DNA from: a virus
DNA length: 64,000 nt
Strand: one strand, 5' to 3'
Virus record (IMG/VR): IMGVR_UViG_3300008266_000014
Coordinates: 91,531 to 155,530 of that record
The position numbers and the translations under genes were made by a program. Shown piece after piece: positions 3,186 to 61,731 of the stretch; positions within the stretch are counted from its first letter, which is position 1, and the number at the start of each line of letters is the position of its first letter. The notes under the pieces were generated by a model, which worked only from the letters and a program-made list of their open reading frames with translations, searched no databases and had not been told where the DNA came from.

Positions 3186-3476
3186 ATGACCATCAAAGTT
3201 ATTCGACTTGTCAATGGTGAAGAATTGATCGGCAAGTATTCAGAAGCACCTACTCATGTTACTCTAGATAAGGTCGGAGTAGTTCAAATGATCCCAACCC
3301 AAAAAGGTGTAAATATTGGATTGTTCCCTTTTGCACCATATGCTGAAGAAGACTCGTTTAAATTTAGTCATGAACATATCGTGACAACCTTTACTCCCGC
3401 AACTGATCTACTTAACAACTACAACCAAATGTTTGGATCTGGGATACAAATTGCTGGTGCGGGTTCATTGAAGTAA
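3186..3476 (+). CDS. Conserved Sm-like small protein upstream of DNA polymerase
   Basis: IKVIRLVNGEELIG...YNQMFGSGI pattern; usual position in T4-like phages. Confidence 0.7.
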   Translation: MTIKVIRLVNGEELIGKYSEAPTHVTLDKVGVVQMIPTQKGVNIGLFPFAPYAEEDSFKFSHEHIVTTFTPATDLLNNYNQMFGSGIQIAGAGSLK

Positions 3477-3491: not shown

Positions 3492-6029
3492 ATGCGTTTC
3501 TACACCAATGTTCATGTGAACAGTAGTTCTGCTTTTGTACGTGGGTACGAGGATGGAAAGAGGTTTCAGTATCGACAGGACTTCTCCCCATACCTCTTTG
3601 CTCCATCACAAATCCCAACGGGGTATAGAACCCTTGATGGTAAGTATGTAAAACCTCTGCATTTTACTGATGTGAGAGAAGCAAGAGATTTTCTGAAGAG
3701 GTATGAGGAAGTCTCAAACTTTGCTCTCTACGGTTCTAATATGTTTACGTATCAATGCATATACGACACATTCAAAGGCGAGATTGAATATAACGTCGAT
3801 GACATTAGTGTCGTATCTCTTGATATAGAAACATCAACGAAGAATGGTTTTCCAAATATTGCCCTTGCGGATAAAGAAGTAATCACTCTTTCTATGCGAA
3901 AGAATGGAAAGTGTGCAGTTATTGGTACGAGACCGTATACACCAAAGTCTGATGATATTGTTTATTATCAGTGTAAGAATGAGTCTGATCTTCTCACTAC
4001 ATTTCTTAATCTTTGGAATTCTGAAGAATGGAAACCAGATGTTGTGACTGGCTGGAACGTCGAGGTATTTGATATTCCCTATCTGTACGTTCGGATATCA
4101 AACATACTTGGTGAGAAGGAGGCAAAGAGAATGTCTCCATGGAAACTTGTTAACTCGAGGTCCATTAGTGCAGAGAATCAAGGTCCGTTTGTTTATGATC
4201 TGATTGGTATTTCAACTCTAGACTATCTTGCCTTATACAAAAAGTTCTCATACACACCTCAAGAGTCATATAAGCTCGATCACATTGCTGAATACGAGCT
4301 TGGTGAAAATAAACTAGACTACTCTGAATATGAATCGATGCATGAGTTTTATGTTCAGAATTACGAAAAGTTTATTGACTATAACATCCACGACGTTGTT
4401 CTTGTTGATAAGCTGGAAGAGAAGTTGAAGTTTATCGAGCAGGTATTTGCTATCGCATATGATGCGAAGGTCAACTACGTTGACACATTCACAACTGTTC
4501 GTATCTGGGATATTATTATTACCAATTATCTCCTCGACAAGAAGATCGTTGTTCCTCATCACAAGTCCGAGGTATTAGAGAAACGAATCGAGTACGATAG
4601 ACAAAAAGGTCCGATCGTTGGTGCATATGTGAAAGATCCTCAAGTTGGGTTACATAAATGGGTTTGTTCTTTCGATTTGAACTCTCTCTATCCTCACTTG
4701 ATCATGCAGTACAACATCTCACCTGAAACATATAAAGGATTGGAGAGTGATATAACAATCGAGAATCTTCTCGAAAGTGAAAAGAGTAATGATCTGATTA
4801 AGAGACTTGATGATACCAATCAAACAATGACTCCCAATGGTGCTCTGTTTGATAAAGACTTTAAAGGATTCTTACCAACGCTGATGGAGAACATGTACAA
4901 CGATCGTTCTGAGTGGAAGAAGCGAATGATCGAAGCAAAGAAGGCATATGAAAAGAATCCATCTCGTAAAATAAGTAATGAGATTGCTCGATGCCATAAC
5001 ATGCAAATGGCAAAGAAGATTCAATTGAACTCCTGCTACGGTGCTCTTGGTAACACCTACTTCAGATGGTATCAACGTAATCTTGCAGAAGCAATTACAA
5101 TGTCTGGCCAACTTTCTATTCGCTGGATGGAAAAGAACATCAACAAGTATCTAAACAAGTTGTTCAAGACTGATAATGAAGACTATGTGATTGCTTGTGA
5201 TACCGACTCGATGTACATTCGACTTGATCGCCTAGTGCAAACGATGTTCGAGGATGATTCTGATAAAGCGAAGATCGTGAAATTTCTTGATGATGTTTGT
5301 GAAAAGAAGATCCAACCCTTTATTGATAAGACGTATGAAGATCTTGGCAATTACATGCAAGTGATGGATCAGAAGATGGTAATGAAGCGTGAAGCGATTG
5401 CAGATAAAGGAATTTGGACAGGGAAGAAGCATTACATTCTCAATGTGTACAATAACGAAGGTGTACAGTATGCAGAACCAAAGTTGAAGATGCAGGGTAT
5501 TGAAGCTGTTCGTTCTTCAACCCCCTCAGCTTGTAGAAAGAACATTGAGAAAGCTCTTAAGATTATCATGAACAAAAATGAGAGTGATATGATTGAGTTC
5601 ATTCGCAACTTCAAAGAAGAATTCGTATCACTTCCTTTTGAAGAGATTGCTTTTCCAAGAGGCGTTAAAGATCTGAAAAAGTATGCTGATAGTTCTTCGA
5701 TCTACAGAAAATCAACTCCTATCCACGTTAAAGGATCGCTGATCTACAACAACCTTCTGAGGGAGTATAAGATGCAGGATAAATATCCTTTCATCGGCGA
5801 TGGAGATAAGGTCAAGTTTTCTTATCTTGTGAAGCCAAATCCTGCAAGAGATTCCGTTATTTCTTGCCCAGGTGAATTGCCTAAACAACTCGGTCTAGAA
5901 AAATACATCGACTACGATACCCAGTTTGATAAATCATTTCTGGAACCGATTCGCTCTATCACAGATGCCATTGGTTGGAAGACAGAAGTCAAACAACAAA
6001 GAGCAACATTGGAAGATCTTTTTGCATAG
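3492..6029 (+). CDS. gp43: Family B DNA polymerase (gp43)
   Basis: Exo I DIET, SFDLNSLYP, KIQLNSCYG, DTDS motifs. Confidence 0.98.
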   Translation: MRFYTNVHVNSSSAFVRGYEDGKRFQYRQDFSPYLFAPSQIPTGYRTLDGKYVKPLHFTDVREARDFLKRYEEVSNFALYGSNMFTYQCIYDTFKGEIEYNVDDISVVSLDIETSTKNGFPNIALADKEVITLSMRKNGKCAVIGTRPYTPKSDDIVYYQCKNESDLLTTFLNLWNSEEWKPDVVTGWNVEVFDIPYLYVRISNILGEKEAKRMSPWKLVNSRSISAENQGPFVYDLIGISTLDYLALYKKFSYTPQESYKLDHIAEYELGENKLDYSEYESMHEFYVQNYEKFIDYNIHDVVLVDKLEEKLKFIEQVFAIAYDAKVNYVDTFTTVRIWDIIITNYLLDKKIVVPHHKSEVLEKRIEYDRQKGPIVGAYVKDPQVGLHKWVCSFDLNSLYPHLIMQYNISPETYKGLESDITIENLLESEKSNDLIKRLDDTNQTMTPNGALFDKDFKGFLPTLMENMYNDRSEWKKRMIEAKKAYEKNPSRKISNEIARCHNMQMAKKIQLNSCYGALGNTYFRWYQRNLAEAITMSGQLSIRWMEKNINKYLNKLFKTDNEDYVIACDTDSMYIRLDRLVQTMFEDDSDKAKIVKFLDDVCEKKIQPFIDKTYEDLGNYMQVMDQKMVMKREAIADKGIWTGKKHYILNVYNNEGVQYAEPKLKMQGIEAVRSSTPSACRKNIEKALKIIMNKNESDMIEFIRNFKEEFVSLPFEEIAFPRGVKDLKKYADSSSIYRKSTPIHVKGSLIYNNLLREYKMQDKYPFIGDGDKVKFSYLVKPNPARDSVISCPGELPKQLGLEKYIDYDTQFDKSFLEPIRSITDAIGWKTEVKQQRATLEDLFA

Positions 6030-58205: not shown

Positions 58206-59429
58206 ATGATCAACTACGGAATGTTTACTGAATACGGCAATAGTGTCGTGGATGGTGTTGTGATTGCTGCCAAGCAGATTGGTTGGTCTCCAAAGGAAGT
58301 GATTGACATTCTGGATGACATCTCTACTGTGCGCGGGCTGCACGAAGCAGGGGATACCGAAGTTCGTGAGCGTGTCTATGCAGCAATCTTCAAGGAGGCA
58401 GTATGATTCAGGCGTACATCGATGATCTCTACGAGAAGGTAATATATCTATGTGAGATCAGAGGGGAGATGAGTCCCGAGGCAAACGCAATCACAGAAGA
58501 GCAGATTGCGAACATAATGAAGATGATCAAGGATGCAGAGGAGAAACAATATGCTAACCAGAGATGAATTCCAGGACATGATGGATGAAACATATCCCCC
58601 CTACAAGGCATTTGGCATTGAGATTGGTGCTGGTAGAGTGATAAGAGAGTGTGATCCAGAGCTCTTTAATGTTCTCTATCACGACTATATGAACAGCATG
58701 GAAACGGAGGAAGCATAATGCTAACTGAAAAGCAAAAGGGATTGTTCACACTTCTCGAGTTCGATGTCAACAGCGAAGATGTACTGCGGGAGCGACACAA
58801 GATGCTCGTTAAGGAGTACGGTGCAGTAAAAGACTTCACTCGCTGGCTGCAGAAGATTCTTGAGCATCGCTGGGCAGAAGATCGCCGGAGGAATTCAACT
58901 CCCTATCTTGGAGATTAATAAAATAGTAACTAAAAATATTTTCAAATACTTGTTGACCAACCACAAATAGTTTGAAGCTCCTGCACTGATCTACATGGAT
59001 GAAGTGCAGCATGAGTCGCGCGGTGAGAATCCAGTGTGTGTTGTTCCGATGGATGTTGAATAAAAGGAGATCATCATGTACACATTCGACGATAACGCTT
59101 TTAGTGATCTGCACAAGGATGCATTCGGTTTTCGTCCAGGCGAGAACTACTGGACATGGATGGGTGCAGCTAGCGATGATGATAAGCAGAAGGAATGGGA
59201 TTTTCTGATCCGAACAATGCACCAGCGCATGAAGGAAGAACACGAGGAAGAACAACGCTGCATTAAGGTGTTCGAAGATCGTATCGATAACCTGATGCAT
59301 ACTGGCACCACTCGCGAGAAGATCATCACATGGTTGATGGATGCCGAGGATGCATTGGGCGACATAGAATACTTTGAGTTCCTGGTGGGACTCCCCTACG
59401 GATATATCAAGAAGAACTACAAGATGTAA
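58206..59429 (+). CDS. Small early ORFs (58206-58406, 58551-58718, 58718-58918, 59076-59429 and one short ORF from 58403)
   Basis: GGAGG/AGGAG RBSs; GTTGACC boxes with TTGACC at 58149 and 58953. Confidence 0.65.
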
Positions 59430-59464: not shown

Positions 59465-59492
59465 AGCCCCAGGATGTCCTGGGGCTTTTTTT
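59465..59492 (+). terminator. Intrinsic terminator closing the ordinary early region
   Basis: AGCCCCAGGA-TG-TCCTGGGGCT followed by T-run. Confidence 0.85.
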
Positions 59493-59639
59493 GTCTGTTA
59501 TTTTTCCCATTATTTTTCCTGTTTTTTTTCCTGTTTTATTCCTACAGGATTACGGGAAGAGTTCCTACTCTTTTCCTACACTACTTCACTGGAAGATTCA
59601 CTTCGAGATACGCTAGCAGCTTCCTGCCAGGTCTTATTG

Positions 59640-59856
59640 AACTACTAACCTACACCTACCCTCATCTACCACATCCACTACACACCCCACAACCAACATC
59701 CCACATCAACAACTCACATCCAATCTAACATAACACCCTACATCATCTTCCCACATCCCACAACACACATCTTCACCTTATCAATCTCATAACATTATCA
59801 AACTATTAACACTATATCAAACCACATACAATTAAAACATAATCTATTAAACTATA
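59640..59856. other. G-free (+ strand) non-coding tract with CACATC repeats
   Basis: No G between 59639 and 59857; the minus strand is therefore C-free. Confidence 0.95.
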
Positions 59857-59862
59857 GATTAT
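59839..59862. repeat. 9-bp inverted repeat at the G-free/C-free switch point
   Basis: ATAATCTAT-taaact-ATAGATTAT. Confidence 0.85.
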
Positions 59863-60035
59863 TGAAATAGTAAGATATGAATTTATTAATGAGTGTTATT
59901 AAAATGTTAAGATGAAGTGGATAGAGGTGTTGTTAATAAAATGTTAAGTTTTGTGGGTAAAATGAATGAAGATTAGATAGATGTTTTTGAATAAAGTAAA
60001 ATTGGTTTTTTGTATTGGGTTGATAGAAAATTTAA

Positions 60036-60064
60036 ATGAACTTTTTATGTGGGTGTGATATGAT
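60036..60064 (+). promoter_or_regulatory. Putative promoter of the C-less operon
   Basis: ATGAAC-N17-TATGAT with extended -10 TG; contains the lone C (60041). Confidence 0.5.
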
Positions 60065-60103
60065 TTGTTTGTAGTAATTAATTTTAATTAGTGGGAGAGA
60101 TAG

Positions 60104-60544
60104 ATGGAAAAGATTGAATTTAGTAAGAGTGTGAATATTAATGAAGTGGAGAGAGTTATTAAAAAAGAGTATGAGTATTTGAATAATGGTTTTGAGTTTG
60201 AAGGTGTGATTGAGTTTATGAAAAAAAATGGAAGTGGAGTTTATGAGTTAATGTTTGGTTGTAGAGGTGGAATGGAAGATATTATTAAAAATGATATGAT
60301 TAAGAGTGAGGAAGAATGTTTTAATGATTTAGTAATGGGTTGTTATAGTAGTGAAAATAGTTTGGATGAAAGTATTGAGTTATTAATGGAAGAAAGTGAT
60401 TTTGATAATGTGGAAGAATTAAAAGAGAGTGTAATGGAATATTATGGTAAGATTGAAGAGATGTTTAAAGATGAAGATGATTATGTAATGGGGTTTGGTT
60501 TTTTTGAAGAAGATGTTAGTATTTTTATTAATGTGGAGGTATAA
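60104..60544 (+). CDS. C-less ORF1, highly acidic 146-aa protein
   Basis: GGGAG RBS; zero C in the CDS; no P/A/T/Q/H. Confidence 0.85.
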   Translation: MEKIEFSKSVNINEVERVIKKEYEYLNNGFEFEGVIEFMKKNGSGVYELMFGCRGGMEDIIKNDMIKSEEECFNDLVMGCYSSENSLDESIELLMEESDFDNVEELKESVMEYYGKIEEMFKDEDDYVMGFGFFEEDVSIFINVEV

Positions 60545-60545
60545 A

Positions 60546-60770
60546 ATGAGTAAGTATAAAATGATTAATGTTATAATGGGAAGAAATTATGATTATAATG
60601 ATAAGTTATTATATGGTAGAAGAAGTTTGAAATATTATGGATATATTAATGATGAAGATTATTTGAAAATTGTTGAAAGTTTAAGATTGATTGATTGTGT
60701 AGTAAATGTTTATAAAAAGGTAAGAAATAAAATGGATTGTTATGTAAGAATTATTGTGGAAGAGAAATAA
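60546..60770 (+). CDS. C-less ORF2, basic Tyr-rich 74-aa protein
   Basis: GGAGG RBS before ATG 60546, 1 nt after the ORF1 stop; zero C. Confidence 0.8.
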   Translation: MSKYKMINVIMGRNYDYNDKLLYGRRSLKYYGYINDEDYLKIVESLRLIDCVVNVYKKVRNKMDCYVRIIVEEK

Positions 60771-60875
60771 TTTGTGAATTGATATTTGAAAATTGATAGT
60801 TATTTTTAATTAGTATTTATTTGTAGTTGATGAGAAAATGTATTTGTTGTGATTATTAATTAAAGGGGATTAAAA

Positions 60876-61136
60876 ATGAGTGGAATTGTAAAAGTTATAG
60901 ATGTTAAAGATGGTGGTTTTTTTGATAATGGTTTGGTTTATGGTAGTTTGGATAATGTTGTTTTGGAAAAAGATGGTGAGTTTATGATGTGTGAAGGTAT
61001 TTTGATTTGGGAAGATTATGATGAGGAAGAATTGAGTTATATTTGGAGTAGTTGGAAAGATTGTTTTGATAATGGTGAAGAAGGATATTTTAAATTTATT
61101 AATGGTGTTTGGGTTGAAAATTGTAAGGTTGTGTAA
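60876..61136 (+). CDS. C-less ORF3, acidic 86-aa protein
   Basis: AAAGGGGATTAAAAATG initiation region; zero C. Confidence 0.85.
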   Translation: MSGIVKVIDVKDGGFFDNGLVYGSLDNVVLEKDGEFMMCEGILIWEDYDEEELSYIWSSWKDCFDNGEEGYFKFINGVWVENCKVV

Positions 61137-61155
61137 TTATTAAAGGGGATTAAAA

Positions 61156-61383
61156 ATGAAAATTGAAATTGAGATTAGTGATAAGATGATTGAGAAGTTT
61201 ATTAGTAAAATGGAAATTGAAGAGAAGTTAAGTTTTAGTAAAGAGGATATTGTAAAGAAAATAAAATTAAAATTGTATGATGATTTTAGTGATGAGGATT
61301 TAGATTTATTAGATGAGATTTTGTGGGATATGTATAATAATGAATGGTTTGAATATGAATATTTGGATGAAAATGAAGAGTAA
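61156..61383 (+). CDS. C-less ORF4, highly acidic 75-aa protein
   Basis: Same AAAGGGGATTAAAAATG initiation region; zero C. Confidence 0.85.
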   Translation: MKIEIEISDKMIEKFISKMEIEEKLSFSKEDIVKKIKLKLYDDFSDEDLDLLDEILWDMYNNEWFEYEYLDENEE

Positions 61384-61402
61384 TTAAAGTTAAAAGAATT
61401 TT

Positions 61403-61436
61403 AAGAAGAGTTACATTTTTTGTAACTCTTTTTTTT
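61403..61436 (+). terminator. Intrinsic terminator of the C-less operon
   Basis: AAGAGTTACA-TTTTT-TGTAACTCTT followed by T-run; holds 3 of the 4 Cs in 59853-61536. Confidence 0.88.
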
Positions 61437-61731
61437 ATTTAAAATGTTAATAAAAAAATAATAGTTATATTTAGAATGGTTATATTATTTAGTGTGGTGG
61501 GGGGTAGTTTTAGAATTTATAGTTGAAATTTAGATGCGCCTAGTCTCCAACTCGCCTCAGACACACTCTATATCACGCAGAAAAACACGAAGAGGCCAAA
61601 ACTTCCAAATCATTTCAAAAACAAATCTCACTGAAATTTTTTTCACGCCAAAAACCGAAAAAAAGACGAAGTCAAAAACACGAAGCGGAATAACTAATAA
61701 ATATTGATATTACTTGTTTGGATATAGAATA

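Follow-up and report, generated by a model that had tools for sequence, protein, structure and literature searches.

Four tolerated cytosines in an otherwise cytosine-free early operon of an uncultured T4-like phage

Strand composition that avoids the transcription termination factor Rho and the PeSL cassettes of T4-type phages are the closest described counterparts of the element analysed here, an operon of small genes whose sense strand is almost devoid of cytosine (C) and which belongs to an uncultured, freshwater, T4-like phage. The stretch of DNA that was analysed, referred to below as the window, is the final 64 kilobases (kb) of a 155.5-kb IMG/VR record (IMGVR_UViG_3300008266_000014). 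It carries T4-type genes for DNA polymerase, gp41 helicase, gp61 primase, UvsX, clamp, clamp loader, NrdA and PstS, and on this gene set the phage is therefore assigned as T4-like; all of its large genes except one lie on the + strand. Described Rho-avoiding composition, with its purine bias and C>G-free regions (PMC13323073, PMC6144790), and the cassette are alike in a sense strand poor in the pyrimidine read by Rho, an antisense strand that makes a good Rho target, and border regions of C excess over G (C>G bubbles) as terminating elements. They differ in that the depletion of the cassette is total, falls on one 1.7-kb phage operon, includes the promoters and the flanks of the terminator and leaves a 15-letter amino acid alphabet, and nothing as extreme is described in either paper.

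PeSL cassettes (PMC2839356, PMC4122927) likewise consist of small early genes of orphan type in a part of the T4-like genome that is hyperplastic, with content shuffled between close relatives in a frame of a conserved early promoter and a stem-loop, whereas the cassette described here has a C-less promoter with an extended -10 element and is a whole multi-gene unit with one leader and one terminator. In agreement with PeSL framing, a GTTGATG promoter is common to the window and a distant lineage, and gene content is shuffled between conserved leader and terminator. We know of no base exclusion in PeSL cassettes, for which the PeSL papers were not searched. ACA-less messages, which resist MazF, have lost the attacked sequence and kept the protein code, and only one trinucleotide is affected; the likeness is immunity by removal of sequence, whereas here every C is gone in any context, together with five amino acids. 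T7 gene 0.3 (Ocr) lies behind tandem early promoters, and ArdA and Arn are acidic DNA mimics; the cassette shares with these systems small, very acidic, first-expressed proteins and strong early promoters, but no similarity of sequence or fold to them was found, and T4-like genomes have no fixed first-entering end. Engineered C-less or G-less cassettes for in vitro transcription (e.g. PMC8969151) can be transcribed to a defined first C without cytidine triphosphate (CTP), and the operon would be their counterpart in nature, 1.34 kb long; unlike these non-coding constructs, it is conserved and encodes four proteins. Full-text literature searches for cytosine-free or C-less phage genes gave no relevant description, and we found none of natural multi-gene messages that omit one base or of their proteins made from 15 amino acids.

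In the 1684 nucleotides (nt) from 59853 to 61536 of the + strand, C occurs only at 60041, 61414, 61426 and 61428, and C-free runs of 188, 1372 and 108 nt are thereby separated. Chance is excluded because, at the genome C content of 18.1%, the probability of 1372 nt without C is about 1e-119, and elsewhere in the 155.5-kb record there is no other C-free tract of at least 104 nt. The U content of the cassette message is 38% and its C depletion is total. The tract is filled by four open reading frames (ORFs) of 146, 74, 86 and 75 amino acids (aa), 381 codons in all, each preceded by a Shine-Dalgarno site. As the comparisons set out below show, selection keeps the sense strand of this early operon free of C, and the four that remain are exceptions that it tolerates. 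The parts of the cassette are as follows.

59853-60103, + strand: C-free leader; contains TAAAATG repeats, ATGAA repeats and two TTAAAATGTTAA-like 12-mers
60036-60064, + strand: candidate first promoter, ATGAAC (60036-60041)-N17-TGaTATGAT (TATGAT 60059-60064)
60104-60544, + strand: gene for P1, 146 aa, net charge -26, without A, P, T, H or Q
60546-60770, + strand: gene for P2, 74 aa, basic, unlike the other three proteins
60826-60856, + strand: internal promoter candidate, GTTGATG (60826-60832)-N18-TGtGATTAT (GATTAT 60851-60856)
60876-61136, + strand: gene for P3, 86 aa, acidic, identical protein on at least 23 metagenome contigs
61156-61383, + strand: gene for P4, 75 aa, acidic, conserved last gene (81-85% identity in loci L011 and L015)
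61403-61440, + strand: intrinsic terminator, a hairpin (61403-61433) and a T-run, with three G-C pairs in a stem of 13 base pairs (bp)
61429-61536, + strand: C-free tail, opening with a third TTAAAATGTTAA copy (61439-61450)

Relatives were gathered by an exhaustive HMMER search with P1, which gave ten clusters; they are metagenome loci, labelled L, together with a second long IMG/VR record, G001 (81.8 kb, 36% complete). Neither the locus nor the 19 kb upstream of it gave a nucleotide match among the INPHARED phages, close-relative scans of IMG/VR with P1, P3 and a 605-aa neighbour were negative, and the relatives of the phage's DNA polymerase are short contigs only. At least six lineages have C-free or C-poor cassettes built around the P1 family, in which several P1 relatives also contain no A, P, T, H or Q. 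In L011 a single C is left in 1653 nt. In L015 a G-free tract of 245 nt precedes 2.9 kb that hold nine genes and one internal C, and L016 and L021 are similar. A single-gene cassette is found in L012-L014 and in G001, where it is again the sole C-free tract of the record, and L026 and L023 form another lineage. The longest C-free stretch among all cassettes is 2682 nt. The gene of L022 has three Cs (0.9%), with two more in its 5′ untranslated region (UTR), and relaxed cassettes are seen in L017 (3.5% C), L025 (~4%, 14 Cs counted by eye in the gene) and L018-L020 (7.5%), the neighbours having ~20%. Across seven loci, 24 cassette genes are without C except for the three Cs of L022, and 23 of the 24 products are acidic.

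Gene content differs among the window, L011, L015 and L021. The leader and the terminator around it are conserved, and the window, L011 and L015 also have the last gene in common; the locus is therefore a fixed expression platform, consisting of a G-free tract, a palindrome, the leader and promoter at one end and the conserved last gene and terminator at the other, with swappable C-free genes for small acidic proteins in it. Three partly overlapping comparisons (the window and L011 over the leader and P1, a four-way comparison of the leader, and the region of P4) gave no C in 39, 35 and 32 variable columns of homologous C-free stretches, against 24 of 45 variable columns with C in the normal DNA just upstream. 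Ten population contigs that are 98.8-100% identical hold too few single-nucleotide polymorphisms (SNPs) for such a test, and all SNPs inside the C-free tract leave it C-free. These alignments indicate that selection for C-freeness is ongoing, and conservation of the C-free state in diverged relatives supports the proposal of an earlier note on this DNA that it reflects biology rather than chemistry.

The earlier note, all of whose coordinates hold on re-examination of the sequence, had paired each of the last three Cs with a G in the terminator hairpin. The pairs C61414-G61422, C61426-G61410 and C61428-G61408 are indeed its only G-C pairs, and they need the three Cs because C-less RNA cannot form G-C pairs. 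The hairpin has a 5-nt loop and a T8 tail, starts 20 nt past the P4 stop codon and folds with -16.1 kcal/mol in RNAfold (z = -3.8). In the ordinary terminators next to it, 4-7 of the 7-11 stem pairs are G-C, compared with 3 of 13 here, and the length of the cassette stem seems to make up for its low G-C composition. The terminator of L015 is homologous to that of the window, with the same three G-C pairs, and those of L012/L013, L026 and L022 are unrelated; in all four non-homologous terminators every stem C is paired with G (3 Cs in the window, 3 in L015, 3 in L012/L013, 1 in L026 and 4 in L022), as would be expected if Cs are kept there where they are needed. C is thus rationed even in the terminator stem. 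Past the hairpin, the C-free sequence that had been put at about 108 nt measures 108 nt, and comparable post-terminator tails of 33-145 nt occur in L015, L012-L014 and L026. The tail was also considered as a degenerate copy of the leader, and its similarity beyond the 12-mer was not above that of shuffles.

The remaining cytosine, C60041, had been assigned to the -35 position of ATGAAC-N17-TATGAT. The coordinates and the motif are correct, C60041 being the sixth base of the -35-like hexamer; the broader proposal that C is removed wherever possible and kept only where needed holds for the terminator stems, and for C60041 a need is plausible only. TATGAT lies 40 nt before the start codon and is preceded by TGa, which makes it an extended -10 element, and its A2 and T6 are kept in all four window-lineage loci (TATGAT; TAAGAT in L011). 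Several points weigh against C60041 as a needed base. ATGAAC matches TTGACA at three of six positions and the phage's own TTGACC at four of six, which is below the promoter-scan threshold, promoter-like matches in the AT-rich tract are no commoner than in shuffles, and a -35 element would be less necessary because an extended -10 is present. The lone upstream C is invariant within AAATGAAC in all four window-lineage loci, which proves little because the whole ~250-nt leader is 88-95% conserved. Further promoter-like sites are found upstream, one by the promoter scan at 59974-60002 (TAGATA-N17-TAAAAT) and two read by eye, at 59877-59905 (ATGAAT-N17-TAAAAT) and at the palindrome (TTAAAA-N17-TAGATT), and starts from the upstream sites would place C60041 inside the RNA. 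That CTP would first be needed at the terminator likewise depends on the predicted, unmapped start site, and the C-free run itself begins 188 nt upstream of C60041, i.e. of the proposed -35.

Residual Cs in the relatives, whose comparison the earlier note had proposed, are located in G-paired stems and promoter-like hexamers rather than at random. The last C before the gene of L025 is the sixth base of TTGTAC-N17-TATAAT (by eye), just as C60041 is of ATGAAC; L012-L014 have their last upstream C in a GTTGAC that lies 27 nt before a C-less GTTGATG-N17-TATAAT promoter, and in L026 it is in a -10-like hexamer, TATACT. The leader downstream of which these genes are exchanged is the constant head of the locus, with its 88-95% identity measured in L011, L015 and L016. 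Examined as a structured RNA, it gave a consensus fold of -18 kcal/mol over 290 columns with no covariation and no conserved structure, and no Rfam family was matched. A population variant, L039, lacks 20 nt of the leader (59921-59940), its most variable stretch.

The phage's ordinary early promoters read GTTGAC(C/A/T)-N17-TAnnnT or GAnnnT; in the cassette promoters the C of TTGAC is replaced and an extended -10 is added, as by the TGt that precedes GATTAT in the internal candidate. This candidate had been noticed for its resemblance to a C-less early promoter, and the resemblance is strengthened by its near letter-for-letter recurrence: 21 of 23 bases are identical to the cassette promoter of L012 and G001, a lineage whose protein is only ~34% identical. 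In addition, GTTGATGAGARAATGTRTTTGTT is common to the window and the L012 lineage and occurs in no other IMG/VR record. Judged by comparison, the internal promoter thus appears to be real.

Three of the four cassette proteins are strongly acidic (net charge -13 to -26), and their joint composition is 15% E, 9% D, 9% K and 6% S. A composition of A, G and T alone predicts, by hand arithmetic, more basic than acidic residues, contrary to what the cassette proteins show. P1 founds a family with the conserved motif GSGVYE..FGCRGG..IKND; its AlphaFold 2 model has a predicted local distance difference test score of 78.7 and gave no fold match in PDB, BFVD or a VIA-wide library. Pfam and PHROGs searches with the four cassette proteins and ten from relatives gave no family of known function, and a word-index search with P3 returned only P3 itself. 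Supply of tRNA was considered as an explanation of the missing codons and set aside, the phage's 11 tRNAs not complementing the codons that the cassette lacks.

The cassette is flanked on both sides by DNA of the opposite bias, and the following features belong to these flanks.

59465-59495, + strand: intrinsic terminator of the upstream operon, co-directional, 9-bp stem with 7 G-C pairs and a T-run
59640-59856, + strand: G-free, C-rich tract (36% C, 217 nt), candidate rut (Rho utilization) insulator
59839-59862, no strand assigned: palindrome, ATAATCTAT-taaact-ATAGATTAT, at which strand composition switches from G-free to C-free
61537-61700, + strand: C-rich, G-poor right flank (26% C, 12% G), a second, weaker rut-like tract

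The G-free tract consists of about seven CCCACATC-like units with a period of ~13-14 nt. By the Rho descriptors of Nadiras et al. (PMC6144790), namely C>G bubbles and chains of YC dimers (Y, pyrimidine), it is the strongest C>G bubble of the window (459 positions), longer than the ~78-80 nt asked of a rut site, and it has the highest C-minus-G excess in the genome (C minus G is 38 of 78 nt). It also carries a chain of six YC dimers at (YC)N9-13, at least four being characteristic of rut, and its RNA, with a minimum free energy of 0 kcal/mol, is as unstructured as rut RNA should be. Comparison with L015 and L016 gave 23 variable columns, none with G. The tract is present where the upstream genes are co-directional (window, L015 and L016, the direction in the latter two being inferred from their upstream alignment to the window) and absent where the cassette is divergent (L012 and L022). 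The right flank has a C>G bubble of 147 window positions and a (YC)N9-13 chain of five.

One ORF of 30 aa or more, at 59474-59728 (84 aa), enters the first 89 nt of the G-free tract; it runs through low-complexity T-rich repeats and was not taken as a gene. Four 12-nt T-rich TTATTTTTCC-like repeats at 59486-59545, between the upstream terminator and the G-free tract, are conserved in L015 and L016. In these two loci the arms of the palindrome are also conserved, and its loop differs. A leftward C-free transcript from the palindrome was considered and rejected: a minus-strand TATAGT is seen, but no ORF, terminator or -35. In L012 (~3330-3345 and 4078-4190), and also in L013 and L014, the cassette has an upstream palindrome, CCTACAATGTAGG, and downstream repeats, TAGGAAATGATTTTGTATTGTGGGA twice and GTTGAGGTATGAAATGTT twice, which together could be operator or recombination sites. 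At 61537-61700 the right flank is an A/C-rich spacer with three AAAAACACGAAG-like units, and the 57-aa basic ORF called at 61534-61707 is probably not a gene.

Some observations concern the neighbourhood and the records themselves. At 58974-58975 the record lacks a 114-nt segment that is present in nine of ten near-identical contigs, the tenth, L037, starting downstream; a 52-aa gene has its Shine-Dalgarno site and its start in this segment, whose deletion creates a false promoter spacing where the real promoter is TTGACC-N17-GATGAT. L038 lacks 126 nt (59255-59380) inside a 117-aa upstream gene. The cassette is close to a contig end in each of the two long records, at a distance of 1.2-2.5 kb, and is oriented towards that end (the right end of the window's record, the left end of G001), a position that probably stems from contigs breaking in assembly where strains differ in cassette content, not from a true end of the genome. 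A gene of the dCMP/cytidine deaminase family at 818-1528 (236 aa, PF00383, E = 2e-23) indicates that the phage handles cytosine nucleotides, and no link to the cassette was found. At 83236-83868 of the record (12237-12869 of L029), a 210-aa ORF adjoins the gene for FolE, and the middle of this ORF matches the HNH region of nucleases of the IscB/Cas9d type (E = 2e-12).

The most likely purpose of the composition, to which we give a probability of about 0.4, is a message without YC dinucleotides that is invisible to Rho. Without YC dinucleotides Rho would be unable to load, so that the long untranslated leader, the tiny ORFs and the intergenic gaps could be transcribed without polarity. The C-rich, G-free and structure-free tract upstream and the weaker tract downstream would serve as putative Rho-loading sites that stop read-through into and out of the operon, and Cs buried in a hairpin or in untranscribed DNA would carry no cost. 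No region of the window without C>G is longer than the cassette (1681 positions, 0 YC dimers), and the presence of the G-free tract beside co-directional and its absence beside divergent neighbours are as expected of a read-through insulator. In vitro, 28 of 32 templates without C>G bubbles showed no Rho termination, and all with bubbles longer than 78 bp terminated (PMC6144790); a 2026 study found that Rho avoidance shapes coding-strand composition (PMC13323073). Weighing against this purpose is that Rho needs several YC dimers, by which zero C in up to 2682 nt is not obviously explained. Nor does Rho explain why G-C pairs are kept to a minimum in the cassette terminators (3 in the 13-bp stem) or why the cassette -35s avoid C (GTTGATG for GTTGAC). 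Collectively, these three features suggest that each single C is costly, and models at the level of nucleotide or template would fit them better. The relaxed relatives (0.9-7.5% C) would fit a graded pressure as well as decay once an all-or-none pressure was lost.

A mutational origin, by strand-specific cytosine deamination (enzymatic or associated with transcription or replication) or by laboratory C-to-T conversion, is largely refuted and must be regarded as very improbable, although the mirror pattern of G-free DNA to the left and C-free DNA to the right of one point is what divergent single-strand exposure would leave. The argument of the earlier note that conversion would have filled the frames with stops is confirmed: conversion of the phage's other genes in silico, which breaks frames at former CAA, CAG and CGA codons, yields 15 stops in 381 codons (P of none = 2e-7), together with 12-13% each of F, I and V, whereas the cassette frames are intact and rich in E, D, K and S, and C-to-T converted DNA was rejected on both counts. 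Moreover, many samples, assembled independently, show the same state, Cs are retained precisely where stem positions are paired, no other highly expressed phage gene shows C loss, and 0 Cs in 2682 nt would need a bias of more than 1000-fold. Selection could instead act for a message that neither needs nor exposes C, one independent of CTP and immune to CTP shortage or to the chain-terminating product of prokaryotic viperins, 3′-deoxy-3′,4′-didehydro-CTP, which would be a first responder when other messages fail; in another form, the RNA would be immune to MazF-type (ACA/UAC) and MqsR RNases or to C-to-U editing. The complete absence of C, whatever the context, from 1.3-2.7 kb of sequence, the return of Cs only past the last stop codon, terminators with the fewest possible Cs, and small, acidic products typical of early anti-host factors would all follow. 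We nevertheless consider it improbable, since C-freeness extends over apparently untranscribed DNA (188 nt upstream here, 244 nt in L022), the -35 boxes are C-less, 33-145 nt past the terminators are also C-free, in L022 the 5′ UTR contains two Cs and the gene three, and motif-specific RNases would purge motifs rather than all Cs. No CTP-depleting defence is known to us, viperins are rare, and no cassette protein falls in a counter-defence family of Pfam or PHROG, PADLOC not having been searched.

The C-less promoters and C-free flanks would be explained, as would a cost for every single C and the C-poor terminators, if the selected property were the absence of modified guanine from the template strand. 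A 7-deazaguanine probably stands in place of all G in the phage DNA, the genome containing FolE, QueD-like and QueE-like genes of that pathway, and phages of the DpdA3 type replace G completely (PMC10516641). A template without modified G could stay readable under glycosylase or nuclease attack, under base exchange, or where an unadapted host polymerase reads the modified base poorly, and since lesions would be possible on one strand only, no double-strand break could arise inside the cassette. This explanation is unlikely too, if somewhat less so than a CTP-free message. DpdA3 is a distant TGT homologue that was found by HHpred (PMC10516641); no gene for it was found in the phage with the Pfam TGT model, and G001, at 36% completeness, shows no FolE or QueD and is uninformative. 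Furthermore, 7-deazaguanine pairs normally, other early genes are read from G-containing templates, and the G-free tract, in which no leftward promoter, terminator or ORF was found, is left unexplained. We also know of no described defence against 7-deazaguanine DNA.

The cassette is best regarded as an extreme variant of strand-composition control, with a substantial chance, short of an even one, that it is something categorically different. Its residual Cs, the most informative of its features, mark the limits of the constraint, which leaves free promoter-like DNA upstream of the predicted start (~30 nt) and sequence past the last stop codon, and they make evasion of Rho, CTP-free transcription and a template free of modified guanine testable alternatives. 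The locus also supplies parts of practical use, namely a C-less cassette of natural origin, a candidate for a super-rut insulator, and proteins that fold from a reduced alphabet. We tentatively suggest that the operon could be a boot sector which, unlike the rest of the phage, would still be expressed where C is unusable in RNA or G in the template. Every C would then be costly, and this would account better than avoidance of Rho for the count of zero, for terminators so poor in C and for promoters without it; if this is true, the acidic proteins would be the counter-measure.

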